Source: a virus. From it: DNA of 64,000 nucleotides. The stretch is taken from the UHGV virus genome UHGV-1362809. One strand, 5' to 3'. The position numbers were made by a program, and so were the translations under genes. How positions within the stretch are numbered: position 1 is the stretch's first letter; each line of letters opens with the position of its first letter. The notes under the pieces were generated by a model that did no database searches, was not told the origin of the DNA, and worked only from the letters and a program-made list of their open reading frames with translations. Shown here in pieces: positions 8,150 to 34,020 of this stretch.

Positions 8150-8164
8150 ATAAGTAGGTGGTAA

Positions 8165-13165: not shown

Positions 13166-13200
13166 CGGGTGTGCAGGGAAACTTGCGCACCCGATAATTT
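13166..13200 (+). terminator. rho-independent terminator
   Basis: GGGTGTGCAG...TTGCGCACCC hairpin followed by an AT-rich tract. Confidence 0.55.
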
Positions 13201-13210
13201 TTATATATAA
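13194..13210 (+). promoter_or_regulatory. conserved AT-rich promoter-like motif (copy 2)
   Basis: ATAATTTTTATATATAA sits right after the terminator, about 25 nt upstream of the ATG at 13233. Confidence 0.4.
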
Positions 13211-13232
13211 CAGTTTTATGGGGTAATATAAT

Positions 13233-19861: not shown

Positions 19862-20499
19862 TGACTTTTATTTTATCTATTTTGTGCGGGTTTTTTGAAT
19901 CCTGTTGGCGTAGAGTATTCGGTGGTAAAGACTGTAAATATCAAGTGTTTGAAATACGTGGAGTACAACACGTTATAAACTGTTTGTTTTTAGCGGCAAT
20001 TTTTACCTACAAGTTTTGGTTTTTGCCGACTTGGTGGATACTAGCACTTTCCGTAGTGTATATGACAATTATTTGGGAGATAGAATTTTGGACTCGTGCC
20101 CATGGTCCTCAGTTTGACGAAGGCAGAGACCTTAATCCTACATCTTATGCTATTAAACGTTATGAGAGACAATGGTTTTGTCATTATCTTCTAACTCCAT
20201 TGTACAACAAAATGGGTTGGACTAAATATAAGTTTAGCTATGACTTTGTGTCAATGGCAATGAGATATACTTTCCCTTGTCTGTGGTTGACTCCATTTTA
20301 TGGTTGGAATATACTATGGATAGGTGCTTTAGTTAGTCCTATTTATTCATTTTGTTGGCAGTTCAAAGAACTGGAAAATAATAGGTATGGAAGTACTCAA
20401 TTAGCTGAATACATTGTTGGGGCATTAGTTGGTTTTGGTCTAATGTTTTTACCGACAAACGGATGGTTATTAACTTATTTAAAGGTGTCAAATGTTTAA
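19858..20499 (+). CDS. polytopic membrane protein (Trp-rich)
   Basis: Several hydrophobic segments (FILSILCGFF, LFLAAIFTY, WWILALSVVYMTII, and others). Confidence 0.5.
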   Translation: MMTFILSILCGFFESCWRRVFGGKDCKYQVFEIRGVQHVINCLFLAAIFTYKFWFLPTWWILALSVVYMTIIWEIEFWTRAHGPQFDEGRDLNPTSYAIKRYERQWFCHYLLTPLYNKMGWTKYKFSYDFVSMAMRYTFPCLWLTPFYGWNILWIGALVSPIYSFCWQFKELENNRYGSTQLAEYIVGALVGFGLMFLPTNGWLLTYLKVSNV

Positions 20500-21307
20500 G
20501 GAACAAGCAATAAGTCAACGTCAATGGGATGAAATGAAACAGTCTGAAAAGAAGGCGTTTTCAAAACAGCATCCAAACTCTAAATTCGCAAAGGCTTTTC
20601 AGTTGGCAATCTACAAAACGAAAAAGTCAAAACTGTCAAAAGAAATTAGAGAATTAAAAGTAGGCCTTACAAAACGAATTTCTAAATCCCGTAAGGAACT
20701 TTTAACCAAATCTATTAAGTCTAAACAGACCAAACTCAAAAATCTAAATACTTTGATTAAAGAATTAGAAGTTGTGAATACTGTTAAGACTGCTCCTAAG
20801 TCTTCTGCTTCTACTATAAAATCCGTTCGTACAGATGCATCAAATATGTATGACTTGCTCAATGAAATAGAAACCTTAGACTCTTGGGTAAGATACTATT
20901 ATGCTGACGACACAACAAGTCAGTGGGATGACGCAAAAAAGTATGAAAAACTATTGGCTGAAAAGGAAGAACAGTTAAAGCAACTGTTAGCTAAGCCTAA
21001 AAAACAAAAACCCCTGATAAATATTTTACAGGATTTGATCCCCTTTGTTGGATTTAAGGAATCAGAGGTACAGTTCGACAAAAAACATAATAGTATGCTC
21101 GTTCGTGCCGTACAACCTCTTAATGCCTCTGAAACTCCCTATACAATTAGTGGAAACCTTGTTGGTAAAAAGAATGGTTGGGAAATAGAGGGTAAGTTCA
21201 ACCCGTATTATGAGTCTAAACTACAAAATATTGCTAAGGTGTTATCCACCTTTGGCACAAATGTTACCAACGTCAAGAAAATACATTTTGAAATCGAAGT
21301 AAAATGA
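20492..21307 (+). CDS. KQHPNS-domain family protein 1 (Lys-rich)
   Basis: N-terminus MFKEQAISQRQWDEMKQSEKKAFSKQHPNSKFAKAF is shared with three other proteins. Confidence 0.55.
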   Translation: MFKEQAISQRQWDEMKQSEKKAFSKQHPNSKFAKAFQLAIYKTKKSKLSKEIRELKVGLTKRISKSRKELLTKSIKSKQTKLKNLNTLIKELEVVNTVKTAPKSSASTIKSVRTDASNMYDLLNEIETLDSWVRYYYADDTTSQWDDAKKYEKLLAEKEEQLKQLLAKPKKQKPLINILQDLIPFVGFKESEVQFDKKHNSMLVRAVQPLNASETPYTISGNLVGKKNGWEIEGKFNPYYESKLQNIAKVLSTFGTNVTNVKKIHFEIEVK

Positions 21308-22431
21308 AAGATATATCAAACAGATTTGGTATTTATGACCGACCACTTGATTTAGATAAACTTCCTTACACGCCGTCCTTATTCTCAATAAGTAGGTGGG
21401 GCGGTATTTTGGATAAGTCTACAACCAAGTGGTTTGGTTTTCCTTCTAAAAATTCTATACAAACTGTATGTACCAGACACTATGGGTTTTACAGTACTCC
21501 TTTAAAGTGCGTATTGCATCTGGTGCAGGACGGGGAGGTAGTTTTTAATTATATACAAGACCGAGCTATACAGGAATTTGACTTTACTTCCTCTGGTAAA
21601 TCTATTTTGGAAGTATACGTTCAGCCATCTAAAATTCAAAATCGACGTATGATATTGACTATACAATCTATAGCAAAACAGTACCAACAGTTTTTTAAAG
21701 CAAATGGTAGTTCTAAAACCTTATACTTTGACCTGTATATACCTCAGAATAATGCTTTTGTAAGACGTCAGACTTACGGGGTTTCAAGTTTTGAAAGTGC
21801 CTTGATTGACGTACAGCGAAATTACAAAGCCTATGAGTCTAATAAACTGCATACTTCCGCTCCGAGATTTAAAGTTATAAGTAAGGAGGCTTTTATGGAA
21901 CCAAAAAAGCTTAAAAAGAGATTTGAAAATATTGATATAGAAGATGCTAACTATATGTTGGACGACCAAGGCTATTTTACCAAGGATATACCTATAAATA
22001 CCCACCCAGTAGAACAGAGGGTAGGAACAGTTTTGAGTAGTTTAGAAACTGCCTGTTTGGTAGATACCTTTAATTACGGTGATGACGTGATACAGCGTTG
22101 TATGGACGTAGATAGGGGTAATAGAGTATTTTCACGTTATTATATCCTTAACAGGGATAAAGAGCTACAGCAAAAAATAGAATCCATGTTTCCTTGTACC
22201 TGTGTCGTAGTAGATAAGTGTATAAAGCAGTTATACACGGTTCCTGAGTACAGAAATAATGGTTATGCTAAAACCTTGTTGAAATTTTTATTTAGTACTC
22301 CTTCTATTTGTGATGCTAAAATAATACGGGCTGAACCTTTTGGTGATAAGTCGATGACTGCCGAGGACTTAAAAAGTTTATATAAGTCCTTAGCCCTTAG
22401 CTGTGGTAGGTCAGATATTCAAGTACTTTAG
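21304..22431 (+). CDS. protein with C-terminal GNAT acetyltransferase-like domain
   Basis: C-terminal VPEYRNNGYAKTLLKFLF resembles the GNAT acetyl-CoA binding motif. Confidence 0.5.
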   Translation: MKDISNRFGIYDRPLDLDKLPYTPSLFSISRWGGILDKSTTKWFGFPSKNSIQTVCTRHYGFYSTPLKCVLHLVQDGEVVFNYIQDRAIQEFDFTSSGKSILEVYVQPSKIQNRRMILTIQSIAKQYQQFFKANGSSKTLYFDLYIPQNNAFVRRQTYGVSSFESALIDVQRNYKAYESNKLHTSAPRFKVISKEAFMEPKKLKKRFENIDIEDANYMLDDQGYFTKDIPINTHPVEQRVGTVLSSLETACLVDTFNYGDDVIQRCMDVDRGNRVFSRYYILNRDKELQQKIESMFPCTCVVVDKCIKQLYTVPEYRNNGYAKTLLKFLFSTPSICDAKIIRAEPFGDKSMTAEDLKSLYKSLALSCGRSDIQVL

Positions 22432-22532
22432 GAGGTTAGTTATGTATGGATACCCAAGTACAAAAAATGTTATATTTATTGGAAAAACAGTAAAATATCC
22501 TGATTTAAAATTTCCTAAATAGGAGGCTTTAT

Positions 22533-23786
22533 ATGGCGATAAATATTGGAAGGGGTGTCAGACAGCAGTCCTCTGTTTTGAAACCGTCCAACTACGGTAT
22601 GTCCCATATTGCAAAAGAACGATTGGTACAGTATGTTGGCATGGCAGTGCAAAAACATATAGAGGCTGTTGAAGTAGATGGTACTCCTGCTGAAATATGG
22701 ATAAAACAAACTGGTGGTAGAGTATGTAGCTGTCAACACCCACAAATAACTACTTCTAACTCTGTTGGTAGCGACACCCCTATACATATCCAGGAAGTTC
22801 AGGAACAAAATCCTTTTACTTTTAAGATAAAATCTCCTGAGGACGTTATTGACGCAGGAGAATATTACAATGAAAATAGGGAACCTGCTACAACATTAGA
22901 AACAGACGAAGGTAATTGGACAACCCAGTTTAATACTGGTGGTTCTGGTTTAACAGACCAACCTTCTAATTTGTTGGACGAGGGTGTAGCAAGTTTATTG
23001 TTTGGTGGGGATAAATCTACCTGTGGTATTTGCTTCGGTACTGGGTGGACAGATGGTTATCGACTTGTTAATGGGCAACGTGTTGTAATAGACGCTACTT
23101 TGCCTAACAACGTGTGCATGGCGTCTATAGATGTTGATACTTTACCATATTCATTTAAACTTCCAGGAGATAATAAATCCTATATAGAATGGTTAGGTGT
23201 ACAAGTACCTAGATACTTTAAAGACGCACAATTTAGTTTGTTCAACAATACAATTCCTGTGCAGGGTGTAGTGCTGATAAGACCGTCAAATACTGAAGAA
23301 TATAAACCTTTGTCGTTGTCCAATTTGTTAGACATAAAGAGTGCTTTTATGGATGTTAAGATTGTTGGACAGTTTAACAAACCGTTGCAGTTTACACATC
23401 TTAACTTGGTATATACTACTTCGGACTTTCCAAAAATAGATACACCTCCTTTTGAAAGGTCGGAGAATTATCAGTTTTTCGAGGCTCTTATGACTACCAA
23501 CTTTGAGGTTCCTGGATCTATTCCTTATGTTGACCGTGAGTCCGTAATAGGAATTGCCAAGGAAGGTTTTTTGTGGAAAGTAAGTTCGGTAAACCAAACC
23601 ATGACACACGAAAGACAAATATTCAAGTCAACTATAACCGCTCGTCTAATTCAACGAAGTGAATGTCTATACCTGCTCAATGGATTATTTAGACCAAAAA
23701 CGGTGTATAATTTTAGGGGACTTGAACGTATACAAGGACTAAGTAATTATATCGATAGGCAGTATAAAAATATGCAAGGTGTCTAA
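22533..23786 (+). CDS. hypothetical protein
   Basis: SD AGGAGG. 417 aa. Confidence 0.55.
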   Translation: MAINIGRGVRQQSSVLKPSNYGMSHIAKERLVQYVGMAVQKHIEAVEVDGTPAEIWIKQTGGRVCSCQHPQITTSNSVGSDTPIHIQEVQEQNPFTFKIKSPEDVIDAGEYYNENREPATTLETDEGNWTTQFNTGGSGLTDQPSNLLDEGVASLLFGGDKSTCGICFGTGWTDGYRLVNGQRVVIDATLPNNVCMASIDVDTLPYSFKLPGDNKSYIEWLGVQVPRYFKDAQFSLFNNTIPVQGVVLIRPSNTEEYKPLSLSNLLDIKSAFMDVKIVGQFNKPLQFTHLNLVYTTSDFPKIDTPPFERSENYQFFEALMTTNFEVPGSIPYVDRESVIGIAKEGFLWKVSSVNQTMTHERQIFKSTITARLIQRSECLYLLNGLFRPKTVYNFRGLERIQGLSNYIDRQYKNMQGV

Positions 23787-23794
23787 CTTGGTAA

Positions 23795-23830
23795 GGGTGT
23801 GGAGGTATTTCCACACCCAATAATTTTTAT
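23795..23830 (+). terminator. rho-independent terminator
   Basis: Perfect 9-bp stem GGGTGTGGA/TCCACACCC followed by AATAATTTTT. Confidence 0.65.
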
Positions 23831-23836
23831 ATATAG
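23819..23836 (+). promoter_or_regulatory. conserved AT-rich promoter-like motif (copy 3)
   Basis: AATAATTTTTATATATAG lies about 18 nt upstream of the ATG at 23854. Confidence 0.4.
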
Positions 23837-23853
23837 TCAAAATAGGTGATATT

Positions 23854-25491
23854 ATGTATATTATTGAAGCTATAACAAAACAAGGTTGGGATAAACTTAC
23901 TCCTGCTGAAAAGAAGAAATATGCTAAACAACACCCTAACTCTAACTTTTCAAGAGCTCTTAATTTATCAATTCTTAGGGTTAAAGCTAAGGAAATAAGT
24001 GGTAAAATAGCTCAGTTAAAGGTAGATATTGTTAAGTACAAGTCTAAGGCTAAAAAATTACAGCTCACTCAAAGTATAAAGTACAATACTACTCGTTTAT
24101 CTAATATAAAAGCTGAAATAGTTAGACTACAAAAATTATTAACACCTTCTAATCAAGGTACAGTAGTTAAAGTCCCTTCCAAACCAAAAGTATCCAAGGA
24201 GCCTATTACCAAAACTAAAAACTACGACAAACTACCTATGCCTGTTGAAGACGACTATATGGATAAACGGTGGAAACAGTCTAAACAAAAAATAGAAAAA
24301 TTGTATGAATTAGAAGCAGATGAAGATGCTTTACGTCGTAAACATTTAGACTGGACTAATCAGCATAAGGATGTTGATTTTACACAGTTACCAGAGTATC
24401 AGCAGTACCATCAAAAACGGGGAGATTTGTTCGAAGAGTGTATGAAATTAAAAAAGTCTTTTAAACCGTATGATAATATGCGTTATAGACAAATGAATTT
24501 TATTGCCTCTTTAGAAGACTCAAATAAACGTGTTCGTTCTAACTTGTTTAAATACTTAGATAAATGTATGACTTCACAGCCTATATCACCTAAGGAATTT
24601 AATGAAATAAAACAGCAAGTATCTCAGTCAATAGATGATTGTGGTATAGATTATTTTATTGCGTTGGTAAATACTAATGAAGACTATGGCGACTACTGGG
24701 ATTATATAGAAAAACATCCTGAAAAGCGTAGTTTGATGGTGCCTATTATGACTCTGTTTGATGAAGAGCAAGTGACAGATGATTCTGAATTTAGTACAGT
24801 ACAACAGCAAAATGAATACTTAGCTACTCTTGCTCCGACGGTACATCTTAATTCCATCAATGATAAGAGACCTATTTGTGAACAGTTTAAAGAACTTGAA
24901 TCTAAATACGTTCCGTTTAGAGTTGACGAAATAAAAACTACCAACCAAAAGTATTCTATTGCTCGTATAAATCTTAATACTTTATCCTTAAATGCCGATA
25001 GTTTTAATAATGCCAAGCTGTATGAAGACGAAACTTATGGAGAGTTCTTAAAGGGTCAAATTAAACGGGCAAATGACATACTTACAGATAACCCTGACCT
25101 ATTGTCCTCTGAACGCAGACAGGTTCTTAACAAAATAAAAGCACTTGAGGAGTCTTTAAAGTATAGATGGTTTACCTTTAGGCAACAAGGTAAATTAGAA
25201 AGTAAATACACGATTACCCACGAATATGGACATTACTTGAGTTTTATTTCAAGATGGGCTGATTCAACAGGCAATATGATACAGCAAGTTTATAATCAGG
25301 TGTACAATAGCAACCTAAAATATAAGCTGACCGAGTACAGTATGTCTAACAGGGAAGAATTTTTTGCTGAATGTTTTAATATGTATCACTACGGTGAGCC
25401 TTTACCAGACATTTGCAAAAATTTAGTGGAAACAGTTATAGAAAAAGCTAAACAAGCTTATAAGGTATTACATGGAGAGAAGTATGTTTAA
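23854..25491 (+). CDS. KQHPNS-domain family protein 2 with C-terminal HExxH zincin-like motif
   Basis: N-terminus WDKLTPAEKKKYAKQHPNSNFSRAL. C-terminus contains ITHEYGHYLSF...W. Confidence 0.6.
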   Translation: MYIIEAITKQGWDKLTPAEKKKYAKQHPNSNFSRALNLSILRVKAKEISGKIAQLKVDIVKYKSKAKKLQLTQSIKYNTTRLSNIKAEIVRLQKLLTPSNQGTVVKVPSKPKVSKEPITKTKNYDKLPMPVEDDYMDKRWKQSKQKIEKLYELEADEDALRRKHLDWTNQHKDVDFTQLPEYQQYHQKRGDLFEECMKLKKSFKPYDNMRYRQMNFIASLEDSNKRVRSNLFKYLDKCMTSQPISPKEFNEIKQQVSQSIDDCGIDYFIALVNTNEDYGDYWDYIEKHPEKRSLMVPIMTLFDEEQVTDDSEFSTVQQQNEYLATLAPTVHLNSINDKRPICEQFKELESKYVPFRVDEIKTTNQKYSIARINLNTLSLNADSFNNAKLYEDETYGEFLKGQIKRANDILTDNPDLLSSERRQVLNKIKALEESLKYRWFTFRQQGKLESKYTITHEYGHYLSFISRWADSTGNMIQQVYNQVYNSNLKYKLTEYSMSNREEFFAECFNMYHYGEPLPDICKNLVETVIEKAKQAYKVLHGEKYV

Positions 25492-26254
25492 GGAAGAAGC
25501 AAGGGGTTTAAGTGAGGACTCCTTTAAGGCTCTCACACCAACGCAACAAATCAGATACATAAAAGACCATCCTAATTCTAAGTATGCTAAAGAATCAAAA
25601 TGGTTAAGCAGAGCTAAAAGATTAAAGGCAAATAAGGCTGTTCGTAGCACACAGCATAAAGCTCCAAAAAATGTTGTCAACCTATTTATGGACGCAGTTA
25701 AAAAATCCTTTACTCAACGTCAAAAGGCGGCTAACGCAAATAAAAAAGGTGCTATAGTAGTTAAACAGCCAAGTAAATTAACGGTGCCTCCTCCTAAACA
25801 AACCCTATTAGAACAAAAAATTGCCAAGTTAGACCCTTTGTCCTTTATTAAACCAGAGGATACTAAACGACCAGCCCCTACACAGGTAGGTCTAATTACC
25901 AGACGTTATTTGAAAGCCTTGGGATTAGATGGTTCTGTTACTACTGAAAAAGGAAGGGCTTCTTTTGTTTATATTTATTTAAACAACTTATCTCCTGATG
26001 AGGAGTATGCCTTGAATAGCAAACTGCACAGAATCTTCGTGCGTGGAACATTTGATGGTATGCAGGATTGTTATATAACAAATAATTACCGTCCTGGAAT
26101 ACCACAGGTAGATTATTTGTCGCTTACTGTAAACTATACTCCAGATGTTCAAATCAAAATGAATAAATTTATTGAGTCTAAGGGTTTCAAGGTAGTAGAT
26201 ACACTGGGCAGAGAAACAATTAGAATGGCTGAAAAGTTAGGTTTTTGGAAGTAA
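25484..26254 (+). CDS. KQHPNS-domain family protein 3
   Basis: Start ATGTTTAAGGAAGAAGCA (MFKEEA) is nucleotide-identical to the 20492 start (MFKEQA), and a GGAGAG SD precedes it. Contains IRYIKDHPNSKYAK. Confidence 0.55.
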   Translation: MFKEEARGLSEDSFKALTPTQQIRYIKDHPNSKYAKESKWLSRAKRLKANKAVRSTQHKAPKNVVNLFMDAVKKSFTQRQKAANANKKGAIVVKQPSKLTVPPPKQTLLEQKIAKLDPLSFIKPEDTKRPAPTQVGLITRRYLKALGLDGSVTTEKGRASFVYIYLNNLSPDEEYALNSKLHRIFVRGTFDGMQDCYITNNYRPGIPQVDYLSLTVNYTPDVQIKMNKFIESKGFKVVDTLGRETIRMAEKLGFWK

Positions 26255-26264
26255 GAGGTGTGTA

Positions 26265-27545
26265 ATGCCTGATAATAAAGGTATTCCTTGTTATCTTTGG
26301 TTTGAAGCTCAGGTACAGCCTGGAGTTGAACCATTTATAAAAATTCCTCAACGTATAAACATAATAGGGGAAGTTATAGGGGTTAATCCAAAATTCAAAG
26401 AAAGTTTTTTGAGAAAAGCTCTTAATATTTATTTTTTGAATGGTGTTATTCCCCTTGACGATTTAAACCAACATTGGATTAAAACAGAGTCCTTTGATAC
26501 TGGACTACGTCCTACTCTTAAGGTAAAAATACAAGCTAAGGATTTACTTAGTGCTGTTATAAATAGGGATTTTGCAAAACAGGGTACTGGGCTTAACATA
26601 ATTCGTCAAGCTGACTATGTGGCTAATAGTCCTACCCTGTATAATCAAATGGGTCAGCAGTCAGCTACTTTTGCTTCTACTAATGGAGTGGATAAGTATG
26701 GGTTTTTACTCAAACCCTTTATACTATCCAATACTGATGTTGACTGGCTTGTACGGTGTTTGCGTACTTGGACACCGATGCTTGAAAAGTACTATACACA
26801 AAAGAAAACTTTTATGGTATCCGTTGTAGGTGGTCCCAAAGTATATACTATCTTTAAACCTAAAAATCCAGGCGGTGATTACTATGACGGAGGTCGTATA
26901 AATATATACTTATCTAAATTTGAGTCCAAACCTAAGTGCATAAAAGATTTTACTCGTTTGCTGGTACATGAATACACGCACTTTTTGCAATATCTTTTTG
27001 TAAAAACAAATAAATCATTGGTATCAAGTTGGGCTAAATCAGCTCCTGTATCCAACCCAGTTAAATACTATAGTCGTATGTGGGAACGTGACGCTTATGC
27101 GGTGCAGTTTTTATGGGAATTTTTATCCTCCCATAATTTACCTTTAAAGGCTCTATCAAATGGTAAAATTCTTAAAGAACATTTTACTCCTGATGTTTTT
27201 AAAGCCTATTTAAAGACAAATTCCGATATTAAGTACCACCTAAGCCGTATGCCTAAACAAATGCGTTCTAAGTGGTTGAATGGGCTAATAATTGCTGCTC
27301 AAAAGTTTGTCAACGATATGCAAGTTAATGTTGTGGAAAGTAGTGTATCTGCTAATGATTATATAATGCTTAAGCAGTATCCTTTGCAGTATTCGTCTGA
27401 ACAAGTAAAATCTTCGTATACAGGTAACAAGTTAGACGATTTTACATACATGGTAAATGCGGAGTACTATCAGTACAATAATGTTCAGCCTGCGGATACT
27501 AAATTACCTGCTATTATGTCAAGAGTTAGCTTATATGTGGAGTAA
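26265..27545 (+). CDS. HExxH zincin-like protein (paralog of the 23854 C-terminal domain)
   Basis: Contains LLVHEYTHFLQYL...SSW. SD AGAGGTG. Confidence 0.55.
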   Translation: MPDNKGIPCYLWFEAQVQPGVEPFIKIPQRINIIGEVIGVNPKFKESFLRKALNIYFLNGVIPLDDLNQHWIKTESFDTGLRPTLKVKIQAKDLLSAVINRDFAKQGTGLNIIRQADYVANSPTLYNQMGQQSATFASTNGVDKYGFLLKPFILSNTDVDWLVRCLRTWTPMLEKYYTQKKTFMVSVVGGPKVYTIFKPKNPGGDYYDGGRINIYLSKFESKPKCIKDFTRLLVHEYTHFLQYLFVKTNKSLVSSWAKSAPVSNPVKYYSRMWERDAYAVQFLWEFLSSHNLPLKALSNGKILKEHFTPDVFKAYLKTNSDIKYHLSRMPKQMRSKWLNGLIIAAQKFVNDMQVNVVESSVSANDYIMLKQYPLQYSSEQVKSSYTGNKLDDFTYMVNAEYYQYNNVQPADTKLPAIMSRVSLYVE

Positions 27546-27550
27546 AATAT

Positions 27551-27931
27551 ATGTGGTTAGTTTGTGGAAATGAATACAGATGGGTGGATGACGATAAGTA
27601 CATATCAATTCAGCCTATTTTAAAAGAGAAGGGTATAAAATATAAGATTACTAAGTATAAACCAAAGTATGGCGAGGAAGTACTTACTAATCTACAGGAC
27701 TTACCGATTCTAGATATGCAGTATTATATTTCTAAAATCATCAAACAATACGGAATAAAAGGATTACTACAAATGATTAGAAATTCAAAAGGAACTTCAA
27801 ATGGTGTGCAAGTTTGTGTGCAAGCTAGCACCTATAAAAAGTTAAAACCCCGTTTTAAAGAAATTGAAAAGATTGAAAAGGAAATCGAGGAATCGAAAAT
27901 TGAATGCCCCGAAAATATTGAAATCGTGTAA
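27551..27931 (+). CDS. hypothetical protein
   Basis: 126-aa ORF with an acidic C-terminus. Confidence 0.4.
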   Translation: MWLVCGNEYRWVDDDKYISIQPILKEKGIKYKITKYKPKYGEEVLTNLQDLPILDMQYYISKIIKQYGIKGLLQMIRNSKGTSNGVQVCVQASTYKKLKPRFKEIEKIEKEIEESKIECPENIEIV

Positions 27932-27953
27932 ATATAAACGACGGTTAAAAACT

Positions 27954-28253
27954 ATGGGAGGTACTTTTAGTTCCTCCCTTTCTGGCAATAAATACAGTAG
28001 TAAATTATCTAATACAGGTAAATATTCCGAACAGTGGGATAGGCTCAGAAAACAACGTTTAGAAATGGATAATTACACTTGTCAGAAATGTGGCTTTGAC
28101 GGACATAAATGTCCAAATAAACTGCAAGTGCATCACAAAGTACCCTTGGCAAGAGGTGGTAAAAATAAGCTTAGCAATCTTATTACTTTGTGTGTCAAAT
28201 GCCACAAGAAACAACATTACAAGGTACTAACAAAAGGACGTAAATATGTTTAA
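27954..28253 (+). CDS. HNH endonuclease
   Basis: CQKCGF...HHKVPLARGG...NLITLCVKCH matches the HNH pattern. The track start at 27864 is an artefactual TTG in the wrong frame context; the ATG at 27954 (MGGTF) is the likely start. Confidence 0.65.
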   Translation: MGGTFSSSLSGNKYSSKLSNTGKYSEQWDRLRKQRLEMDNYTCQKCGFDGHKCPNKLQVHHKVPLARGGKNKLSNLITLCVKCHKKQHYKVLTKGRKYV

Positions 28254-28434
28254 TTTAGAACCTTTCCTACATAAAGGAATCCTAAGGCATACTATCATCG
28301 AAAAAGATGGTAACAAATACCCTGTTTGGGTGTGTTCCGCAAATGCTACGGAAAAAGATAAACAGGAATTACAAAAAATTACTGACGAATACAAAAAATG
28401 TTACGGTATTCCTTTAATCGGTTTTGAAAAGTAG
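28246..28434 (+). CDS. small hypothetical protein
   Basis: 62-aa ORF. Confidence 0.35.
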   Translation: MFNLEPFLHKGILRHTIIEKDGNKYPVWVCSANATEKDKQELQKITDEYKKCYGIPLIGFEK

Positions 28435-28444
28435 GAGAACTAAT

Positions 28445-28702
28445 ATGGACTATGAATTATACATAATTGAAAGTGCCGACCAGTTATCTGACGTACAAGT
28501 AAAAGGTACTGTTCCAGAAGGTACATTCACAGGAGGTTCTTACACGATTGTCAAAAAATTATTAGAAGCCTCCAAAGGTGACATCAGTAAGGCTATAAAG
28601 AAGTTGGTGTTTTATCGAAATAGAGCTGGTGAAAACCTAACAAACAAGACCAACATCGAAAAAGCTCTTAAGATTTTACAAAACAAGAAAGAACTTCAAT
28701 GA
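28445..28702 (+). CDS. small hypothetical protein
   Basis: ATG at 28445 follows an AGGAGAAC SD. The track start at 28424 lies upstream of that SD. Confidence 0.4.
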   Translation: MDYELYIIESADQLSDVQVKGTVPEGTFTGGSYTIVKKLLEASKGDISKAIKKLVFYRNRAGENLTNKTNIEKALKILQNKKELQ

Positions 28703-29265
28703 CACAGCTTGCGTTATTTGGATTAGAGCACGCAGACTCCAAAGTGGTTAGTCAACAAACATACAACTCTTGGTCGACTCTAGAAAAAATAAATTACTTA
28801 AAGCGCAAAGTAAAAGAGAACTATGCTTATATAAATGGGGTGCGCAGTGAGCAAATGAAGGCTAAAAGTAAAACGTATGCCAAATGGTGTGAGTCTATTG
28901 TCAAACCTGATTATTTTGACCCCGACAATAATCAATCCTGCTTAGAGGATGGAATACGTGCTGTAGATTCCCTGAGAGAAACCCAGTCAGAGGAAGGTGT
29001 GTCCCCTACTGAAATTGAAAATGAACACGCCTTTAATGCCCTTAGAAATCAAATAATGCTTAAAAATTACAACATATTTGACTATGATCCTAAGGTGGAC
29101 TTTACTAATATGTCTTTAGATGGATTTAAAGACTGGGGTTATAATCTAAATAAACGCAAACTCCAACAAGAGAAAAACAAAAAGAAAGCTGAAAAGTTGA
29201 GAAAAAGTTATACTGGTGGACTTTTCTCCCACTATAATATTCCTGACGAGGACGAGGAGGAGTAA
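28699..29265 (+). CDS. hypothetical protein
   Basis: 188 aa with an acidic C-terminus (DEDEEE). Confidence 0.5.
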   Translation: MTQLALFGLEHADSKVVSQQTYNSWSTLEKINYLKRKVKENYAYINGVRSEQMKAKSKTYAKWCESIVKPDYFDPDNNQSCLEDGIRAVDSLRETQSEEGVSPTEIENEHAFNALRNQIMLKNYNIFDYDPKVDFTNMSLDGFKDWGYNLNKRKLQQEKNKKKAEKLRKSYTGGLFSHYNIPDEDEEE

Positions 29266-29498
29266 TGCCTACACTATCTTTACAGCCCACTATTACACTA
29301 CAACCATTCGGTATTAATGTTACCGAATTAAAGATTAATGATTTTGCCTTAATAATAAATCCTTACAAACCTCCTACACCTCCTATACCCGTTGACCAGT
29401 GGTTGTTGCAACCGAGACCAATTCCTTCTGGTGTGGATAAAACTGTGTGGGACGACATTCAGTTTTGGATGGATAATAAGTATTGGACTGAAGTATAA
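29265..29498 (+). CDS. small hypothetical protein
   Basis: SD GGAGGAG. 77 aa. Confidence 0.4.
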   Translation: MPTLSLQPTITLQPFGINVTELKINDFALIINPYKPPTPPIPVDQWLLQPRPIPSGVDKTVWDDIQFWMDNKYWTEV

Positions 29499-29524
29499 AG
29501 TACTAAGTTATAAGGAATGTTATA

Positions 29525-30397
29525 ATGCCTATTCAACATATTGAAAATAATGAAGTTGCTTCCTCTGTTAGAGAAAAACTAAACAACTCCATCGACCAAG
29601 TAAACTCACTTGGCGAGGATATTAAAAACGTAAGATATACAAACGATGTTCCTACTCCTACGGATATTGGAGGCATCAAAAAGGGAACAACGTTTGACAA
29701 CCTTACAATCGGTCAAATTTTAGATGACTTACTGTACCCTTACACGGTTCCTACGGTAGAATTAGTTACCTCTCCTGACCCCAAAGTGCTTAGGGAATAT
29801 GGTGATTCTATTTCACAGCTAACTTTGACAACGGTAATCTCTAAAGGCTCTTCTTCTAACCTAACGGCTACATTTAAACGAGGAGAAGAAGTAATTGGAA
29901 CCTTACCGACCTCTGGTTTTAATGTTACTTTTACATACAAGCCTAATCCTCCTCTTAATGAAGACGCTACTTTTACAGTAGAACTATCTGATGAAAAATC
30001 GACCGCAGTATCTAAAGAAGTATTTTATGACTTTGCGTATCCTTATTATTGTGGTATTTCAAATACAGATAGTGTGGATGAAGTTACAATTAAAGCGTCC
30101 ACAAAGGTGCTGCAATTAAAGGATAACGTAAATCCTCGTTTTACTTGTGTCAACGCCCACCCGTTTTTTGCATTTCCTCCTGATTGGGGCAATGTAATTG
30201 CTATCTATGACACCAACAAATTCAACATCACAGATAGTTTTAATCAGTCTAAAGTATCTATTACGACCAATGATGGTAGAACTACAGAGTATAATTGTTA
30301 TACCCTAAAAACTGCTACAACAATAAATGACTACACAATATATGCTACGTTCAAACCAGAGGGAGTGTTGTCGTGCGTAAAAGCTGTACCTATTTAA
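29525..30397 (+). CDS. hypothetical protein
   Basis: SD AAGGAA. 290 aa. Confidence 0.5.
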   Translation: MPIQHIENNEVASSVREKLNNSIDQVNSLGEDIKNVRYTNDVPTPTDIGGIKKGTTFDNLTIGQILDDLLYPYTVPTVELVTSPDPKVLREYGDSISQLTLTTVISKGSSSNLTATFKRGEEVIGTLPTSGFNVTFTYKPNPPLNEDATFTVELSDEKSTAVSKEVFYDFAYPYYCGISNTDSVDEVTIKASTKVLQLKDNVNPRFTCVNAHPFFAFPPDWGNVIAIYDTNKFNITDSFNQSKVSITTNDGRTTEYNCYTLKTATTINDYTIYATFKPEGVLSCVKAVPI

Positions 30398-30624
30398 AAA
30401 ATGTTTTGATTGGAATAGACCAACTGGTTAATACTTTACTTGGTGGCTATCCTGACGAAACAATGTCTGCAAGGGCGTATCGTCTTGAATATAATGGCAA
30501 ACTAATAGGTAAAACACTCAGACCTATTATTGACTGTATAATGTTCTGGGACGATAATCATTGTAAAGAATCATACGAAAGTGAAGTACTCAAAAAACAA
30601 CTTCCTAAGGACTACGACGTTTAA
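30373..30624 (+). CDS. small hypothetical protein (GTG start, uncertain)
   Basis: GTG start overlaps the upstream gene. 83 aa. Confidence 0.3.
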   Translation: MRKSCTYLKNVLIGIDQLVNTLLGGYPDETMSARAYRLEYNGKLIGKTLRPIIDCIMFWDDNHCKESYESEVLKKQLPKDYDV

Positions 30625-30626
30625 GG

Positions 30627-30655
30627 TTGACATCTAATATAAAATATGTTAGTAT
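30627..30655 (+). promoter_or_regulatory. sigma70-like promoter (TTGACA, 17-nt spacer, TAGTAT)
   Basis: TTGACA at 30627-30632 and TAGTAT at 30650-30655. Confidence 0.35.
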
Positions 30656-30664
30656 GGTAATAAT

Positions 30665-30693
30665 CAGTAAGGTATGTTTATACTCTACTTATA
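30665..30693 (+). repeat. conserved 29-bp intergenic element (copy 1)
   Basis: CAGTAAGGTATGTTTATACTCTACTTATA is 28/29 identical to the copy at 33583-33611. Confidence 0.6.
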
Positions 30694-30714
30694 GGTATCT
30701 TACTGTTTAAGCTG

Positions 30715-30730
30715 AAGGGTTATAACCCTT
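30715..30730 (+). promoter_or_regulatory. perfect 16-bp palindrome (candidate operator) upstream of the 30753 gene
   Basis: AAGGGTTATAACCCTT lies about 20 nt before the SD. Confidence 0.3.
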
Positions 30731-30752
30731 AAACTATTAAAGGAGAATTAGA

Positions 30753-31781
30753 ATGCTTACGGAACAAAATAAAGACTTATATATTAAAATTATGGCTAAT
30801 CCAAAACCCATAGTGGATAAGTTTAGTTTATATAGTGCCAGAGACCTATGCTGCTATAGTGTATCCTGGCTTGGCTATTACAATGTATTGTGGAAAAAAG
30901 GTATCAAACTTATTTCCGTATTTCCTAATAGTCAATACAAAGTTAGAGCATTGAAGATTACTGGGGAGTCTATTCCTATCAGTATGAAAGATTGGGAAAA
31001 AATTAAAAGACAGTTTAAGAAATACCCTACTAATGGTATTAGTGTTAAAGAGAGAATTAAAATGTACTATGAGTATGTAGTAGAATGTAGTTCCTTTAAT
31101 AGGATTAAAAGTCATTTTAATAATAAGAAGGTCTGTATGTTATCCGCTTTTAGACAGGAGGACGAGGAAGGAAATCATATTAGTCTAAAAGAAAATTTAA
31201 GGAGAACGAAAAGGTTAAAGGATAAATTAAAATTTTTAGCTAAATCCTTTAATTGGAGATACTTTGAAGTAGAAGGTTGTTATTTAGAACAGGGTCAAAC
31301 TATTCCTTCTATTGAGAAATCCTTTTTTGTTGTAGCAGATGATAATGATGTGGATTTTAATAAAATAATGATTTCATTAGGAAAGGCTTTTAATCAAGAT
31401 AGTATTTTATTGAAGTCTAAAAAAGATAATGCCTATTATGTTTCTACTAATCAAAAGTCTGATAAAATATCGGGAGTCAAACTTGGTAGATTCGTACCAA
31501 ATGTTATAGGAGAATTTTATTCTAAGCTAAGAGGCAAACCTTTCATCTTTAAGTATTCTAAACCTCATCATTATTTTAAAAATGAAAAAGGAATAAAAAT
31601 AAATAAAATATTGGGCAAACCTAATGCTAATAAATATACTTATTTAGGTATTCCTAACATATATAAACAAGGGAATAAATTTTTAGTTAAGAAATATATA
31701 AAGGGAAAATTATATAAGGAACTTTTTGATACATTACCAGAGGCTAAAACATTTTTAAATAGTCTAAAAAGATTTAGCTAA
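30753..31781 (+). CDS. Lys-rich hypothetical protein
   Basis: SD AAAGGAGAA. 342 aa. Confidence 0.55.
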   Translation: MLTEQNKDLYIKIMANPKPIVDKFSLYSARDLCCYSVSWLGYYNVLWKKGIKLISVFPNSQYKVRALKITGESIPISMKDWEKIKRQFKKYPTNGISVKERIKMYYEYVVECSSFNRIKSHFNNKKVCMLSAFRQEDEEGNHISLKENLRRTKRLKDKLKFLAKSFNWRYFEVEGCYLEQGQTIPSIEKSFFVVADDNDVDFNKIMISLGKAFNQDSILLKSKKDNAYYVSTNQKSDKISGVKLGRFVPNVIGEFYSKLRGKPFIFKYSKPHHYFKNEKGIKINKILGKPNANKYTYLGIPNIYKQGNKFLVKKYIKGKLYKELFDTLPEAKTFLNSLKRFS

Positions 31782-31797
31782 ATAGTAAAAGGTGCAA

Positions 31798-31832
31798 GGG
31801 TGTTGGGATTTACCCAACACCCTATTTTTTTT
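31798..31832 (+). terminator. rho-independent terminator
   Basis: Perfect 10-bp stem GGGTGTTGGG/CCCAACACCC followed by T8. Confidence 0.8.
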
Positions 31833-31836
31833 GTCA

Positions 31837-31854
31837 ATAATTTTAATATATGGT
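31837..31854 (+). promoter_or_regulatory. conserved AT-rich promoter-like motif (copy 4)
   Basis: AATAATTTTAATATATGG overlaps the track's ATG at 31850. Confidence 0.4.
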
Positions 31855-31885
31855 TGCAACCCAAATATATGAAAGAGGTAACAAA

Positions 31886-33523
31886 ATGAAATTTTTAGAT
31901 ATTGTTTTGGCGATGAAAGTTCCAGGCAAAGTCACGAAAAAACAGTGGGTTAAGTTGAGTGACAGCGTTAAAAGAGCTTACGTCAAACTACACCCCACTT
32001 CAATATTCGCTGAATTGTACAAAAAAGAACAGGTAAAGAGAAAGAAAGCTGTTCCCGTTAAAAAGTCACACGTTAAAAAGGTAACTAAGCCTTTGACCCG
32101 TGCTGCGGCTCCTCAGCAATCTTTTATCCAGTACAAGGAATCCACTTTCAAACCTATGTCTAAAATGACGTGGAATAAAGATGATGGTTCTGATATTGTT
32201 GGGGGAGAATATAAAGAACTGCAAGTAGATAAACGTAAGCTCCCAACTCGTAGAGCTCGTTTAGTTGAATATCGTATGACCGACAGTCAGACTCGTTTAG
32301 CTTGTCAGATTTTTAGAGATTTGACGGATAATGGTCTTAAGTTTAATGGTCGTAATGACGAACAGCTAGACACTATGTTAAGAAAAAAGTATGGTAAACG
32401 TTGGGCGAACATTGCTAAAGCTTATCGTGTGTTGCAGGATGATCCTAATAGCTTTGTCAACACTGGTTTGTTTATGTACGAACAACCTGAAGACATTGAA
32501 GTCAATCACATGGCTTGGGCTGTCGAACACGATCCTCGTAATATGCGCTTGTATGAAAATACACCCGTTGAACTGCAAATTAGCTATTTAAAAGCCAACC
32601 CAGATAAAGCTAAGTATGTACACAACTTAAACAAAAAGGCTTCCAAATACATTATAGCCGATAAACAGCAGCACGTTATTAAACCTGACTTAATCAAAAA
32701 AGAAGACGTTAAGAGAGTCGTTGAAAAGAATGAAATTGTAGAGGACAACAAGGATAAAGACATCGTAAAGGTTGAAAAACCTGCCACTACAATTACCCCT
32801 GTAAAAGAGGAAACTAAAAAACCTGAATCCGTTGTCAACACCAAACCCTATGTTTCAATTCTTGACCGAGTTCCTGCTCCTCCAAGACCTGCTCCAACAG
32901 TTGTAAAAGTTGAGCAGCCTAAGAAGGAAGAAGTACAGCTAACAGGTAAAACTGCTAAAATCAATATTGACACGAAGGGCAAAACCAACGAACAGATTTT
33001 GGTTGAACGTCATCACTTAGTTGACCGCCACCTAAAAGCTGGTAACAATGTCAGATTTGATGAATTGGTTGAAGAAGACTGGAACAATATCTTGCACGAT
33101 AAACCAGAAGCTATCTTGCAAATTAAAGATGCTCCAGCTTCCTTGGTGTACAATACAGTCAAGTCCCATAAAGACTTAATTGATAAGCTGAACGACAAAC
33201 AAAAGGCTGAATTGGTAAAAGAAGATGGTATGCTTTTAAAAGAAATTGCAAAACCTGATGAAGAAACCATCAACAATGCGATTGACAGTAATGCTGCGGC
33301 TATTCAGTTTGTCAAAAACCCGACTGAAGATCAGCAACAGAGAGCTGTTATAAACAACTTGTTCGCTTTTAGATACATCAAAAATCCATCTCCTGAGGTT
33401 AAAGAGATTTATGACAACCTAAAAGAGGACTATGATGCGCAGAAAAAACAGGGTAAAACAATGATTAATATGTATACCCTGTCTAAATTGCAAAAAGCAA
33501 AAGCGTTGGCAAAAATAAAATAA
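31886..33523 (+). CDS. KQHPNS-domain family protein 4 (HPTS variant), Lys/Glu-rich
   Basis: The likely start is the ATG at 31886 (MKFLDIV) after an AGAGG SD; the track start at 31850 overlaps the promoter motif. Contains KKQWVKLSDSVKRAYVKLHPTSIFAEL. Confidence 0.55.
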   Translation: MKFLDIVLAMKVPGKVTKKQWVKLSDSVKRAYVKLHPTSIFAELYKKEQVKRKKAVPVKKSHVKKVTKPLTRAAAPQQSFIQYKESTFKPMSKMTWNKDDGSDIVGGEYKELQVDKRKLPTRRARLVEYRMTDSQTRLACQIFRDLTDNGLKFNGRNDEQLDTMLRKKYGKRWANIAKAYRVLQDDPNSFVNTGLFMYEQPEDIEVNHMAWAVEHDPRNMRLYENTPVELQISYLKANPDKAKYVHNLNKKASKYIIADKQQHVIKPDLIKKEDVKRVVEKNEIVEDNKDKDIVKVEKPATTITPVKEETKKPESVVNTKPYVSILDRVPAPPRPAPTVVKVEQPKKEEVQLTGKTAKINIDTKGKTNEQILVERHHLVDRHLKAGNNVRFDELVEEDWNNILHDKPEAILQIKDAPASLVYNTVKSHKDLIDKLNDKQKAELVKEDGMLLKEIAKPDEETINNAIDSNAAAIQFVKNPTEDQQQRAVINNLFAFRYIKNPSPEVKEIYDNLKEDYDAQKKQGKTMINMYTLSKLQKAKALAKIK

Positions 33524-33734: not shown

Positions 33735-34004
33735 TTGCTCAGTACAAAACACAAATATATAGCTACACAAAATTGCGTTTTAAAATTTAAGGAGTTTCCA
33801 GTAACAGTAGATTTTAATGCTAATCCTAAATCCAAAACAATAGTACAAAAAGATTGTCTTATTTATCTAACACAGGGTCAAATTTTTGAAGTAGACATAT
33901 CTACAGACTATATATGTTATTCAAGTGTGGATGAGTTAATATTAGATGAGAAAGCAATTTTAATACAAAGCGATTGCATACAAAAATATAGGGTGAGGAA
34001 ATAA
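33735..34004 (+). CDS. small hypothetical protein (TTG start; doubtful)
   Basis: TTG start with no ATG alternative. Its end runs into the bidirectional terminator. Confidence 0.25.
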   Translation: MLSTKHKYIATQNCVLKFKEFPVTVDFNANPKSKTIVQKDCLIYLTQGQIFEVDISTDYICYSSVDELILDEKAILIQSDCIQKYRVRK

Positions 34005-34020
34005 TTCCTCACCCTTTTTA
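33991..34020. terminator. bidirectional rho-independent terminator between convergent genes
   Basis: Perfect 10-bp stem GGGTGAGGAA/TTCCTCACCC with loop ATAA. T-rich flanks on both strands. Confidence 0.75.

Follow-up and report, generated by a model that had tools for sequence, protein, structure and literature searches.

A conserved N-terminal module on otherwise different jumbo-phage proteins, a candidate header for virion delivery

The 64,000-nt stretch analysed here (the window) comes from an uncultivated 237-kb jumbo phage, and four of its plus-strand open reading frames (starting at 20492, 23854, 25484 and 31886) encode otherwise different proteins, p1–p4, with a common N-terminal module. 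The module family is widespread, confined to phages and missing from the family libraries and the literature searched. Judging from sequence comparisons, the module may be a new adaptor or "header" on virion-delivered effector or internal proteins, a candidate function to which we assign a probability of about 0.4.

Four Module Copies in the Window

The four copies (Table 1) share the consensus [ST]xxx[WF]xx[LM]xxx[EQ]KKx[YF]xKxHP[NT]Sx[FY] over about 30 residues. With profiles built from three copies, the omitted protein was always the top non-training match (E = 1.4e-13, 1.3e-11, 1.8e-4, and 6.5e-6), and the next matches all had E > 0.2. The six-frame translation has 495 ORF segments of at least 40 aa, and in them HP[NT]S occurs only four times, always in the N-terminal context of the module. 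The similarity of the four proteins, first pointed out in a preliminary description, is therefore far beyond chance.

The motif given there (W..L...EKK.[YF].KQHPNS) is approximate, since p3 has F for W and QQI for EKK, and p4 has VKR for EKK. The nucleotide-identical start of p1 and p3, ATGTTTAAGGAA[CG]AAGCA, was described correctly; their remaining DNA similarity is only what the common amino acids impose. The lengths reported for p1, p2, and p4 (271, 545, and about 545 aa) also stand, but p3 reaches the reported 260 aa only from an alternative ATG at 25472. For p4, translation from an upstream ATG at 31850 would give 557 aa. The starts used here, 25484 for p3 (overlapping the p2 stop codon) and 31886 for p4, correspond to the start positions of the homologs P0004 and P0016 and are preceded by the Shine-Dalgarno-like sequences AGAGGT and GGAGAG.

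Table 1. Module-carrying proteins of the window, their module copies and a possible further copy.
Feature	Position	Strand	Description
p1	20492-21307	+	271 aa; 5-aa leader MFKEQ, module, Lys-rich helical hairpin with a homolog in p2, C-terminal domain without known fold
Module copy 1	20510-20593	+	p1 aa 7-34: ISQRQWDEMKQSEKKAFSKQHPNSKFAK
p2	23854-25491	+	545 aa; module, basic helical hairpin, helical domain, C-terminal HExxH...EFFAE zincin-like domain
Module copy 2	23872-23955	+	p2 aa 7-34: ITKQGWDKLTPAEKKKYAKQHPNSNFSR
p2 zincin-like metallopeptidase region	24868-25473	+	aa ~339-540; HEYGH 25219-25233, EFFAE 25357-25371
p3	25484-26254	+	256 aa; leader MFKEEARG, module (F for W), Lys-rich linker, C-terminal domain without known fold
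Module copy 3	25508-25591	+	p3 aa 9-36: LSEDSFKALTPTQQIRYIKDHPNSKYAK
Possible degenerate fifth copy	28699-29265	+	N-terminus of a 188-aa ORF, ..YNSWSTLEKINYLKRKV.., without HPxS; uncertain
p4	31886-33523	+	545 aa; 14-aa hydrophobic leader, module (HPTS), Lys/Pro-rich region, C-terminal repeat region
Module copy 4	31931-32014	+	p4 aa 16-43: VTKKQWVKLSDSVKRAYVKLHPTSIFAE

Besides these four ORFs, no copy was found in the six-frame translation of the window. The best sub-threshold match to the module profile is the ORF at 28699 (E 0.86), whose syntenic homolog at locus L037 (2537–3175) gave an E-value of 0.006. An exact copy of p4 is present on the 237-kb contig, and at least four further module copies lie 8–17 kb past the window end in the same genome, so that the count of four first given is too low for the phage as a whole, even leaving aside the possible copy at 28699.

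The module genes of the window are closely packed on one strand, immediately behind tail-fibre-like genes, and conflict-type genes abound around them (SAM lyase, HNH, a GNAT-like protein and a second HExxH protein). As described earlier, their products are Lys-rich: K and R make up 16–19% of the whole proteins and 23–28% of residues 36–110, a region with a pI of 10.0–11.3.

The four proteins had been called unrelated beyond the shared domain. This holds for p1, p3, and p4, which show no similarity to one another outside the module, but p1 and p2 are 37% identical over 110 N-terminal residues (E 3.5e-19), a stretch that includes the predicted basic helical hairpin. No Pfam, PHROG or NCBIfam family was found for p1, and the C-terminal repeats of p4 match PHROGs without assigned function (phrog_5925, E 6.5e-12). 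The HExxH motif noted in one protein is that of p2 (HEYGH, aa 456–460). Six full-length p2 homologs all retain the module and the zincin part, and the motif is kept in all six family members together with E502-F-F-A-E506; H456, E457, G459, and H460 are invariant and Y is replaced by F in P0006. The zincin-like region matches Pfam ATLF below the cutoff (E 2.8e-4, 21.1 bits against 27.4), its best BFVD match is a 'Zinc-binding metallo-peptidase' (E 2.5e-3, probability 1.00) and no PDB match was found; the AF2 model of p2 has a mean pLDDT of 71.9.

A Widespread Phage Module Family

An exhaustive profile search gave about 120 cluster representatives carrying the module. The window copies are one version of a strongly conserved family-wide motif, (W)WxxLSxxEKKxYIKxHPxSKYAK. 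Across 182 distinct instances, pooled from the profile-search proteins and related loci, the conserved positions include L/M at +3, S/T at +4, K/Q/R at +8, K at +13, and K-[YF]-A-K at +19 to +22, and conservation of the core is far above that of any flanking sequence. The first module W lies within 40 residues of the N-terminus in 107 of 127 proteins, and 26 of the 127 have two to five copies, including internal ones. AF2 modeling of the p2 module on an 81-sequence alignment placed helices at residues 9–13, 17–26, and 31–46 (pLDDT ≈80–86). The module is thus predicted to be a conserved three-helix unit of about 24–35 residues.

No match to the module was found in Pfam, PHROG, NCBIfam or the PDB, copy 4 giving a weak DUF5535 match below the Pfam cutoff (E 0.0037), and the literature searched held no counterpart. 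Nearly all occurrences of the module are on phage contigs, most of which are large: bacterial species genomes gave one match in 185,579, on a 7.8-kb MAG contig, and the plasmids searched gave none. Many IMG/VR contigs of 130–295 kb have two to five module genes per 20 kb, and one jumbo phage encodes at least eight module proteins. Hosts are diverse, spanning Burkholderia, probably Erwinia and Achromobacter, and low-GC uncultivated bacteria. Isolates with the module are BcepSauron/Saruman, BCSR5, NCTB and possibly Motura and Yoloswag. By its major capsid protein (MCP; 35–39% identity) the phage of the window belongs to the PaBG/phiRSL1/Sarumanvirus lineage. PaBG and phiRSL1, whose virion proteomes have reportedly been published, have no module by tblastn.

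Shuffling has joined the module to many unrelated cargos. Pfam-defined partners are LPD1, RelA_SpoT, HNH_3, Topoisom_I, WYL_2, and BRCT; others are the zincin peptidase, repeat proteins, transmembrane proteins or short Lys-rich tails only. The 2530-aa P0074, encoded 5 kb upstream of a large terminase, is a polyvalent protein with zincin/LPD1, HNH, ParB-like and RelA/SpoT domains and four module copies at domain junctions, each internal copy being preceded by L-A-A-L-G-I-T-A-D. Polyvalent proteins are a class predicted to be packaged and injected (Iyer et al., 2017, PMC5512222).

These architectures already largely refute the reading that the similarity is the best-conserved remnant of an ordinary duplicated-gene family, without separable N-terminal function: p1 and p2 are similar over 110 rather than 35 residues and p3-like proteins are a true paralog family inside the 237-kb genome, but a 24-residue core that in distant phages is joined to Pfam domains of unrelated kinds, is repeated inside single polypeptides, is conserved far above its flanks and is shared by the otherwise dissimilar p1, p3, and p4 makes this very improbable.

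Possible Function of the Module

The portable module on unrelated cargo that had been described is borne out by the family, with its strong N-terminal preference, genes in late or structural blocks and presence in a polyvalent protein. Module genes adjoin tail tube, MCP or sheath genes in BcepSauron (gp075) and at loci L002, L013/14, and L019. Such late-oriented clustering is only suggestive of a virion role; in BCSR5 the module gene is 24 kb from the MCP gene.

In the proposed header, three short helices would pack around an invariant H-P-x-S turn, with W, Y, and Y/F holding them together, to form a mobile, phage-specific mini-domain. It usually follows a short hydrophobic leader and a junction of acidic and small residues. 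As an address, it would recruit cargo to the virion during assembly through binding either to an internal component of the capsid or scaffold or to the DNA under packaging. Only about 12 of 28 module loci have any homolog in common with the window neighborhood, a pattern that speaks for a generic ligand, for instance DNA, rather than for a single specific structural partner. The adjoining basic segments could help the proteins ride on DNA, and the cargo, serving as internal proteins or early effectors, would enter the host together with the genome. In polyvalent proteins, a module copy before each enzymatic domain would let every processed fragment keep its address; protease processing is conjecture. 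No virion proteomics for the module-carrying isolates was found in the literature searched.

Alternatively, the module could be a miniature, DNA-binding HMG-box-like element for anchoring enzymes and basic proteins on intracellular DNA (phage or host nucleoid), with no role in virion incorporation. Aligned by hhalign, the 81-sequence module profile scored 27.4, 25.5, and 23.0 against the SOX2, SOX17, and SOX9 HMG boxes (probability 68–88%) and 21.7 against NHP6A, compared with null maxima of 16.2 (300 shuffles) and 17.6 (203 window fragments). The module resembles the C-terminal half of the SOX-type box, with W-x-x-L-S-x-x-E-K-x-x-[FY], an 11-residue gap, K-E-H-P-x-x-K-Y and an aromatic mini-core. 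The basic tails (pI 10–11.3), the many DNA enzymes among the cargos (topoisomerase IB, ParB-like, HNH, BRCT), the diverse phage backgrounds and weak Pfam HMG_box matches of family members fit this reading. The comparison was, however, picked post hoc and covers 12–21 columns only. The module is half as long, lacks helix 1 and the N-terminal strand, and has a helix 3 shorter by 11 residues; Pfam HMG scores are far under threshold. Foldseek ranked the HMGB1 A box only 22nd (E 8.8, TM 0.27), which is no structural match, and any homology would be tentative. A generic DNA binder would also be expected in prophages, plasmids and bacteria, where the module is essentially absent. We consider this reading rather unlikely. 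The preliminary description had named a match to a known enzymatic or DNA-binding domain as evidence against packaging; no enzymatic match was found, and the only DNA-binding likeness is this partial one, above two null sets.

A protein–protein docking motif for some other conserved target (a host factor, a membrane, or a phage-made compartment or complex such as a replication or assembly factory), which would gather accessory proteins there, seems still more doubtful. Like many docking motifs, the module is short, strongly conserved, portable and found in tandem, and some members (P0054, P0064, P0070, and P0103) combine transmembrane segments with a conserved C-terminal helix. However, no candidate for the partner emerged; a single host target would have to be universal among the diverse hosts, and the gene neighborhoods indicate virion rather than replication modules.

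The original proposal of an N-terminal signal like the T4 capsid-targeting sequence (CTS) or a phiKZ propeptide, removed by the prohead protease after targeting, is improbable in this strict form. The N-terminal location fits, and many members have acidic and then small residues just upstream of the module (..EVEE|ARG.., ..IEE|SRG.., MYIIE|AIT in p2, ..A-x-D-WW..). These junctions resemble the x-x-E sites cleaved by T4 gp21 and phiKZ gp175. But a cut at these candidate sites, upstream of the module, would take off the leader and leave the module in place, so that the conserved part is not a discarded propeptide; moreover, it is predicted to be folded and is also internal and repeated. The leaders of the four window proteins (MFKEQ, MYIIE, MFKEE, and MKFLDIVLAMKVPG) share no protease site. 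Elsewhere, members of the large subfamily to which p3 belongs have a longer leader, M..LNRLEVLAGL..EVEEARG[LI]SE. The window has no prohead protease gene, and the protease of BcepSauron matches no Pfam family that would indicate its specificity.

Comparison With Known Delivery Systems

Like the module, the T4 CTS (IPI-III, Alt) recurs at the N-terminus of proteins that are otherwise unrelated (small, often basic ones as well as an enzyme) and are encoded among late genes. Its outcome, head packaging and injection with the DNA, is the one proposed here. The CTS is unstructured, has about 10 residues, is lineage-restricted and is cleaved after L/I-x-E. The module, in contrast, is a predicted helical unit of 24–35 residues whose conservation extends to very distant phages. 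It is also found inside proteins and in tandem, and it would stay on the protein after a cut at the upstream acidic junction. The phiKZ-like inner-body and head proteins, whose N-terminal propeptides are cleaved by the gp175 protease at S/A/G-x-E sites, are likewise multiple paralogous jumbo-phage proteins with acidic cleavage-type junctions. There is no sequence relationship to the module proteins, the window phage has a different MCP lineage (PaBG/phiRSL1/Sarumanvirus) and processing is conjectural here.

In the P1 Dar antirestriction system, an N-terminal segment of DarB directs capsid incorporation. Polyvalent proteins carry MuF or ArdC-N 'header' domains (Iyer et al., 2017, PMC5512222). 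In both, as proposed for the module, an N-terminal header couples diverse effectors to a DNA-delivery vehicle. Another common trait is an association with zincin-like metallopeptidases, which may process the cargo. No match links the module to the MuF, ArdC or LPD families of Pfam, and polyvalent proteins are commonest in conjugative elements, whereas the module is absent from plasmids and almost all bacterial genomes. The module family even includes a polyvalent protein, P0074, and unlike the MuF/ArdC-N headers the module recurs between domains and not solely at the protein head.

Genomic setting of the module genes

The window is AT-rich (GC 29–42%) and has a structural gene set of the myovirus type. 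Its head protein is 35–39% identical to counterparts in the jumbo phages phiRSL1, PaBG and BcepSauron/Saruman, and equally so to those of several Erwinia, Xanthomonas and Pseudomonas jumbo phages. At the DNA level no similarity of the window to isolated phages was found. The genes of four proteins with a common N-terminal module (p1–p4) form a tight same-strand array directly behind a group of tail-fibre-like ORFs that includes one with a DUF4376 domain. An exact match to p4 identified a 237,192-bp metagenomic contig (ENA ERZ27229744 k119_39996; JGI 3300045988 Ga0495776_003993), of which the window represents positions ~73,095–137,094.

Features of the window and of the same genome beyond it (window coordinates, except for L034, an IMG/VR locus of this genome)
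Feature	Coordinates	Strand	Remark
Virion protein	5223–5924		234 aa, adjacent to major head protein; next to a 510-aa ORF at 3679–5208
Major head protein	5927–7018		phrog_2522, E 4e-68
Tail sheath	10005–12599		865 aa
Tube-like protein	12614–13159		
p1	20492–21307	+	module protein
ORF with GNAT-like motif	21304–22431	+	375 aa
Protein between p1 and p2	22533–23786	+	417 aa, phrog_21298 (unknown function)
p2	23854–25491	+	module protein
p3	25484–26254	+	module protein
Second HExxH protein	26265–27545	+	426 aa, directly after p3
HNH endonuclease	27864–28253		
ORF with module-like N-terminus	28699–29265	+	
S-adenosylmethionine lyase domain protein	30753–31781	+	PF23780, E 2e-15; immediately upstream of p4
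p4	31886–33523	+	module protein
Hairpins and AT-rich boxes	23795–23837, 31797–31854, 33990–34015, 13193–13211		
ORFs with PLP-type domains	~37531–41200	−	
Baseplate and fibre genes	from ~45 kb onwards	−	
At least four further module proteins	L034 5882–6553, 10001–10948, 13926–14351, 14365–14895	− (contig)	same 237-kb genome

Several neighbouring genes have recognizable features. The second HExxH protein (HEYTH at aa 235, then ..MWERDAYAVQ..) lacks the module and matches no Pfam or PHROG family; both motifs are kept in a homologue (6927–8471, 31% identity) on L022 (209 kb), which is the closest related contig and has baseplate genes 43–44% identical. The 375-aa ORF has a C-terminal GNAT-like motif (PEYRNNGYAKTLL; Pfam Acetyltransf_7 at a sub-threshold E 0.013) that is conserved in L022 14076–15413. 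By its domain match, the lyase-domain protein is an anti-restriction enzyme of the T3 SAMase type. The 417-aa protein contains two CxxC-type pairs. In three unrelated IMG/VR loci (L006, L020 and L021) its homologues are encoded no more than 10 kb from module genes, so a functional link to these genes is possible. The PLP-dependent enzyme domains (PF01053 Cys_Met_Meta_PP and, weakly, PF00266 Aminotran_5) are found among six to eight consecutive ORFs of comparable length (~270–350 aa); lying amid the structural genes, these ORFs may represent a cassette for metabolism or sugar modification.

Three strong terminator-like hairpins have related GGGTG...CACCC stems. Two of them stand just ahead of p2 and p4, and an identical AT-rich box of 19 nt, AATAATTTTWATATATRGT, comes after each of these two. 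In the tail module a copy of the box with three mismatches lies ahead of ORF 13233. The number of box matches was six, where 0.94 would be expected. We regard the box as a candidate promoter of the phage, in which case p2 and p4 would be separate transcription units.

The shared N-terminus of p1–p4

The four ORFs named in the preliminary description are all present in the ORF list, and alignment of their N-termini showed invariant K, H, P and S together with conserved W/F, L/M and Y/F. Among six-frame segments of at least 40 aa the string HP[NT]S occurs just four times, always in a module context. Leave-one-out profiles recovered every omitted protein (E 1e-13 to 2e-4, background E > 0.2), and a profile of all four found no fifth significant copy in the window. 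The ORF with a module-like N-terminus (..YNSWSTLEKINYLKRKV..) resembles a decayed module without HPxS and is sub-threshold (E 0.86); its syntenic homologue in the IMG/VR locus L037 (2537–3175) has a module score of E 0.006.

Beyond this domain the proteins had been described as unrelated. This is true of the other pairs, which have the module alone in common, but wrong for p1 and p2, since their homology spans 110 residues. The nucleotide-identical start of p1 and p3 is real and 18 nt long, the remaining DNA likeness being what the protein demands. A nucleotide-level repeat or recent duplication was ruled out because conservation is confined to the amino-acid pattern. The reported Lys richness is also borne out, residues 36–110 being strongly basic in all four proteins.

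The HExxH motif noted in one protein is the HEYGH of p2, which belongs to a family of six members in which the module is always combined with a zincin-like domain. Zincin metallopeptidases of the anthrax-LF-like or MPTase type have HExxH and a Glu ligand further downstream. In p2 and its relatives the H, E, G and H are invariant (Y is replaced by F in the member P0006), and the downstream EFFAE is kept in six homologues. The match of p2 to Pfam ATLF reached 21.1 bits, under the 27.4 cutoff, and a zinc-metallopeptidase entry was the top match of its zincin-like domain among viral models (BFVD; E 2.5e-3). In the PDB, Foldseek with the p2 model was uninformative and phmmer against the sequences gave no hits; isolated phages have nothing close to p2 at the DNA or protein level. 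The start of p3 overlaps p2, whose C-terminal hhxG tail is conserved, and this prompted a test for a split or frameshifted p2–p3 polyprotein in which p2 would supply the "missing" LEVLAG leader of p3. The candidate was rejected because the p2 homologues in L036 and L037 are not followed by p3-like genes.

The module family and its predicted fold

With the short module alignment as query, word-indexed homology searches returned essentially nothing, and an exhaustive profile search was needed. Against 1.84 billion cluster representatives it yielded 120 proteins at E ≤ 1e-3. Their core is sharply conserved, with the consensus W-[WF]?-x-x-[LM]-[ST]-x-x-[EQ]-[KQR]-[KR]-x-Y-[ILV]-K-x-H-P-x-S-K-[YF]-A-K. 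Upstream of it there are two flavours, ..A-x-D-x-W-W.. and ..[AS]-[GR]-[ILV]-[ST]-x-x-x-W.., the second being that of the window proteins. Most copies are preceded by a short hydrophobic leader (such as MK.L.RL.V.A.. or M..LNRLEVLAGL..) and then by an acidic/small-residue junction.

The regular expression used to count core instances has W/F/Y, Y, H, P and S as fixed positions, so the invariance there is partly by construction. HMM-based counts are free of this bias: the first W lies within 40 residues of the N-terminus in 107 of 127 proteins, and 26 of the 127 have two to five module copies. The first copy starts past residue 40 in 20 of the 127. Protein length varies from 47 to 2530 aa (median 195 aa).

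AlphaFold2 with an 81-sequence alignment predicted three short helices for the module (pLDDT ~80–86). The module is poorly placed in the model of full-length p2, where a confident antiparallel hairpin of basic helices comes after it.

The profile also recruited two database proteins, P0020 and P0023, with signal peptides and tandem W..MTPEE+..F...HP repeats, which score above the threshold of Pfam DUF7167. They probably form a separate bacterial periplasmic repeat family, which has only the W..M[ST]P.E pattern in common with the module. On L022, the module gene at 9945–10535 has a TAG at the conserved-W codon and is frameshifted by 1 nt when compared with P0059, an intact database protein. There is no sign of recoding of this TAG, and the defects would reflect either an assembly error or a pseudogene.

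Cargo and distribution

The module is a portable, phage-restricted and predicted helical unit. Many unrelated cargos carry it at the N-terminus, and at least one polyvalent protein has it at its domain junctions. This protein, P0074 (2530 aa), contains LPD1, HNH_3 and RelA_SpoT domains as well as a HELGH zincin and a DGHHR ParB-like motif, and is encoded 5 kb upstream of the large terminase subunit on a 62–71-kb phage contig. Its four module copies lie at the N-terminus and at three domain boundaries (residues 1115, 1823 and 2191), each internal copy having L-[LA]-A-[AS]-L-G-[IV]-T-A-D just ahead of it. Other cargos include topoisomerase IB with or without a ParB-like motif (P0052 and P0092), WYL_2 plus BRCT (P0112) and leucine-rich-type repeats (P0033 and P0089), while further module proteins have transmembrane segments or Lys/Ala/Pro-rich tails alone.

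The module is multiplied within genomes and often encoded inside or beside virion gene clusters. In IMG/VR, 28 module loci were found, most of them on contigs of 130–295 kb, and many have two to five module genes per 20 kb (five in L009, three in L007). In BcepSauron, gp075 (YP_009904453.1; three module copies) is encoded directly after the tail tube gene, as is the module gene of L002; L013/14 have a 70-aa module protein between the MCP and the sheath, and L019 has three module genes ahead of the head cluster. In the genome of the window, at least four copies lie ~8–17 kb past the window end and adjoin Phage_TTP_2, Peptidase_M15_4 and FtsK-like genes. All have a long conserved leader, MKALDRLEVVAGVKPE[VI]EESRGIS, and one has WYL_2 cargo. 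Together with p1–p4, this genome thus encodes at least eight module proteins.

Among 50,697 records of isolated phages, tblastn with consensus and concatenated module queries found the module in Sarumanvirus, BCSR5 (QRE00245.1) and NCTB only, and weakly in Motura and Yoloswag; the same queries gave no module in PaBG or phiRSL1. A scan of one bacterial or archaeal genome per species (185,579 species) gave a single instance, on a 7.8-kb MAG contig, and plasmids gave none.

Possible function of the module

We consider it possible, with a probability of about 0.4, that the module is an adaptor that commits its cargo to the virion interior, from where the cargo would be delivered with the DNA. The ligand could be an internal capsid component or DNA itself, and the basic tails, the DNA-enzyme cargos, the varied phage backgrounds and the HMG-like pattern would favour DNA. 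In a more specific version, which we consider less likely, the HPxSKY module would serve as a previously undescribed address tag used across phages, perhaps in the form of a truncated HMG-like DNA clamp. Such a tag would commit proteins to the capsid interior and also mark the junctions at which polyvalent proteins are cut and kept. The virion proteomics literature searched, including a BCSR5-related paper, contained no data set for a module-carrying phage.

Two rivals to the adaptor reading are a pure intracellular DNA tether, which would share with it the features that favour DNA as ligand, and a docking unit for some other partner. The preliminary description had likened the N-terminus to T4 capsid-targeting sequences and phiKZ propeptides. 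Its idea of a shared address on diverse, probably delivered cargo is partly supported, but the mechanistic analogy is not. A strict reading of this kind, with the shared part as a cleaved targeting signal, is disfavoured because the conserved part is predicted to be structured, is repeated, and would lie downstream of any cut at the conserved acidic junction. No prohead-protease cleavage site is shared by the four leaders, no prohead protease homologue was found within the window, and the BcepSauron protease matches no Pfam family. The domain architectures leave little room for plain paralogy.

Proteins that phages package and inject decide the first minutes of infection through anti-restriction, host takeover and DNA protection. 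To our knowledge, they are almost impossible to recognize from sequence outside T4, P1, N4 and phiKZ. A conserved, easily searchable tag on dozens of cargo types of large uncultivated phages would be a direct handle on this hidden repertoire. If the address tag is real, the complete set of injected effectors and internal proteins of uncultivated jumbo phages could be read from sequence, with at least eight such proteins in the present genome; foreign cargo given the tag could also be loaded into the capsids of these phages. It would also connect "solo" effectors with polyvalent proteins and suggest how the latter are partitioned.

Comparison with known families

Pfam, PHROGs and NCBIfam contain no significant match to the module, and Foldseek of the module model against the PDB was uninformative, with no structural neighbour emerging. 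The motif strings gave no match in the literature searched, and the motif is absent from the reviews and papers on polyvalent proteins and jumbo phages. The family is undescribed, while the theme of a header on injected effectors is already known. As it is large, phage-specific and absent from these databases, it deserves a family definition even if its function differs. Sub-threshold matches were p4 to DUF5535 (17.9 bits, gathering threshold 25) and canonical members to DUF7167 (17–19 bits, under 24.4); the latter threshold was passed by the dubious signal-peptide repeat protein P0020 and not by canonical members.

A T4-type capsid-targeting sequence occurs only at the extreme N-terminus, once per protein. 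The prohead protease removes it by cutting at a conserved downstream site, and the proteins that carry it are found in purified virions. In contrast, the module is multi-copy or internal in a subset of proteins, and its conserved acidic/small-residue junctions are upstream only.

[quoted passage not shown] P0074 fits this pattern with three such domains in one chain and a terminase nearby. The window proteins have at most one recognizable enzymatic domain (p2) and therefore resemble "solo" versions. Among the domains described for polyvalent proteins (LPD1–40, MuF, ArdC-N and others), the LPDs deposited in Pfam, MuF and ArdC gave no match to the module.

The W..L...EK..Y pattern and weak matches to Pfam HMG_box/HMG_box_2 (E 0.03–0.06, below threshold and in two relatives only) led to a post hoc comparison of the profile with HMG boxes. 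The HMG box is a three-helix, L-shaped domain of ~75 aa and is regarded as eukaryotic, whereas the module has ~30 aa, with a Foldseek TM of 0.27. Scores with hhalign were 27.4 for SOX2, 25.5 for SOX17, 23.0 for SOX9, 21.7 for NHP6A and 19.3 for LEF1, against null maxima of 16.2 (300 shuffles) and 17.6 (203 window fragments). The module matches the W..L...EK..[FY] pattern of the HMG helix 2–3 junction and the C-terminal HP.YKY of SOX proteins, the SOX alignment joining W..LS..EK..[FY] to KEHP..KY over an 11-residue gap. This apparent likeness is post hoc and partial, covers the C-terminal half of the HMG box, and does not amount to membership. If it did reflect homology, the module would be a rare prokaryotic-virus relative of the HMG domain.
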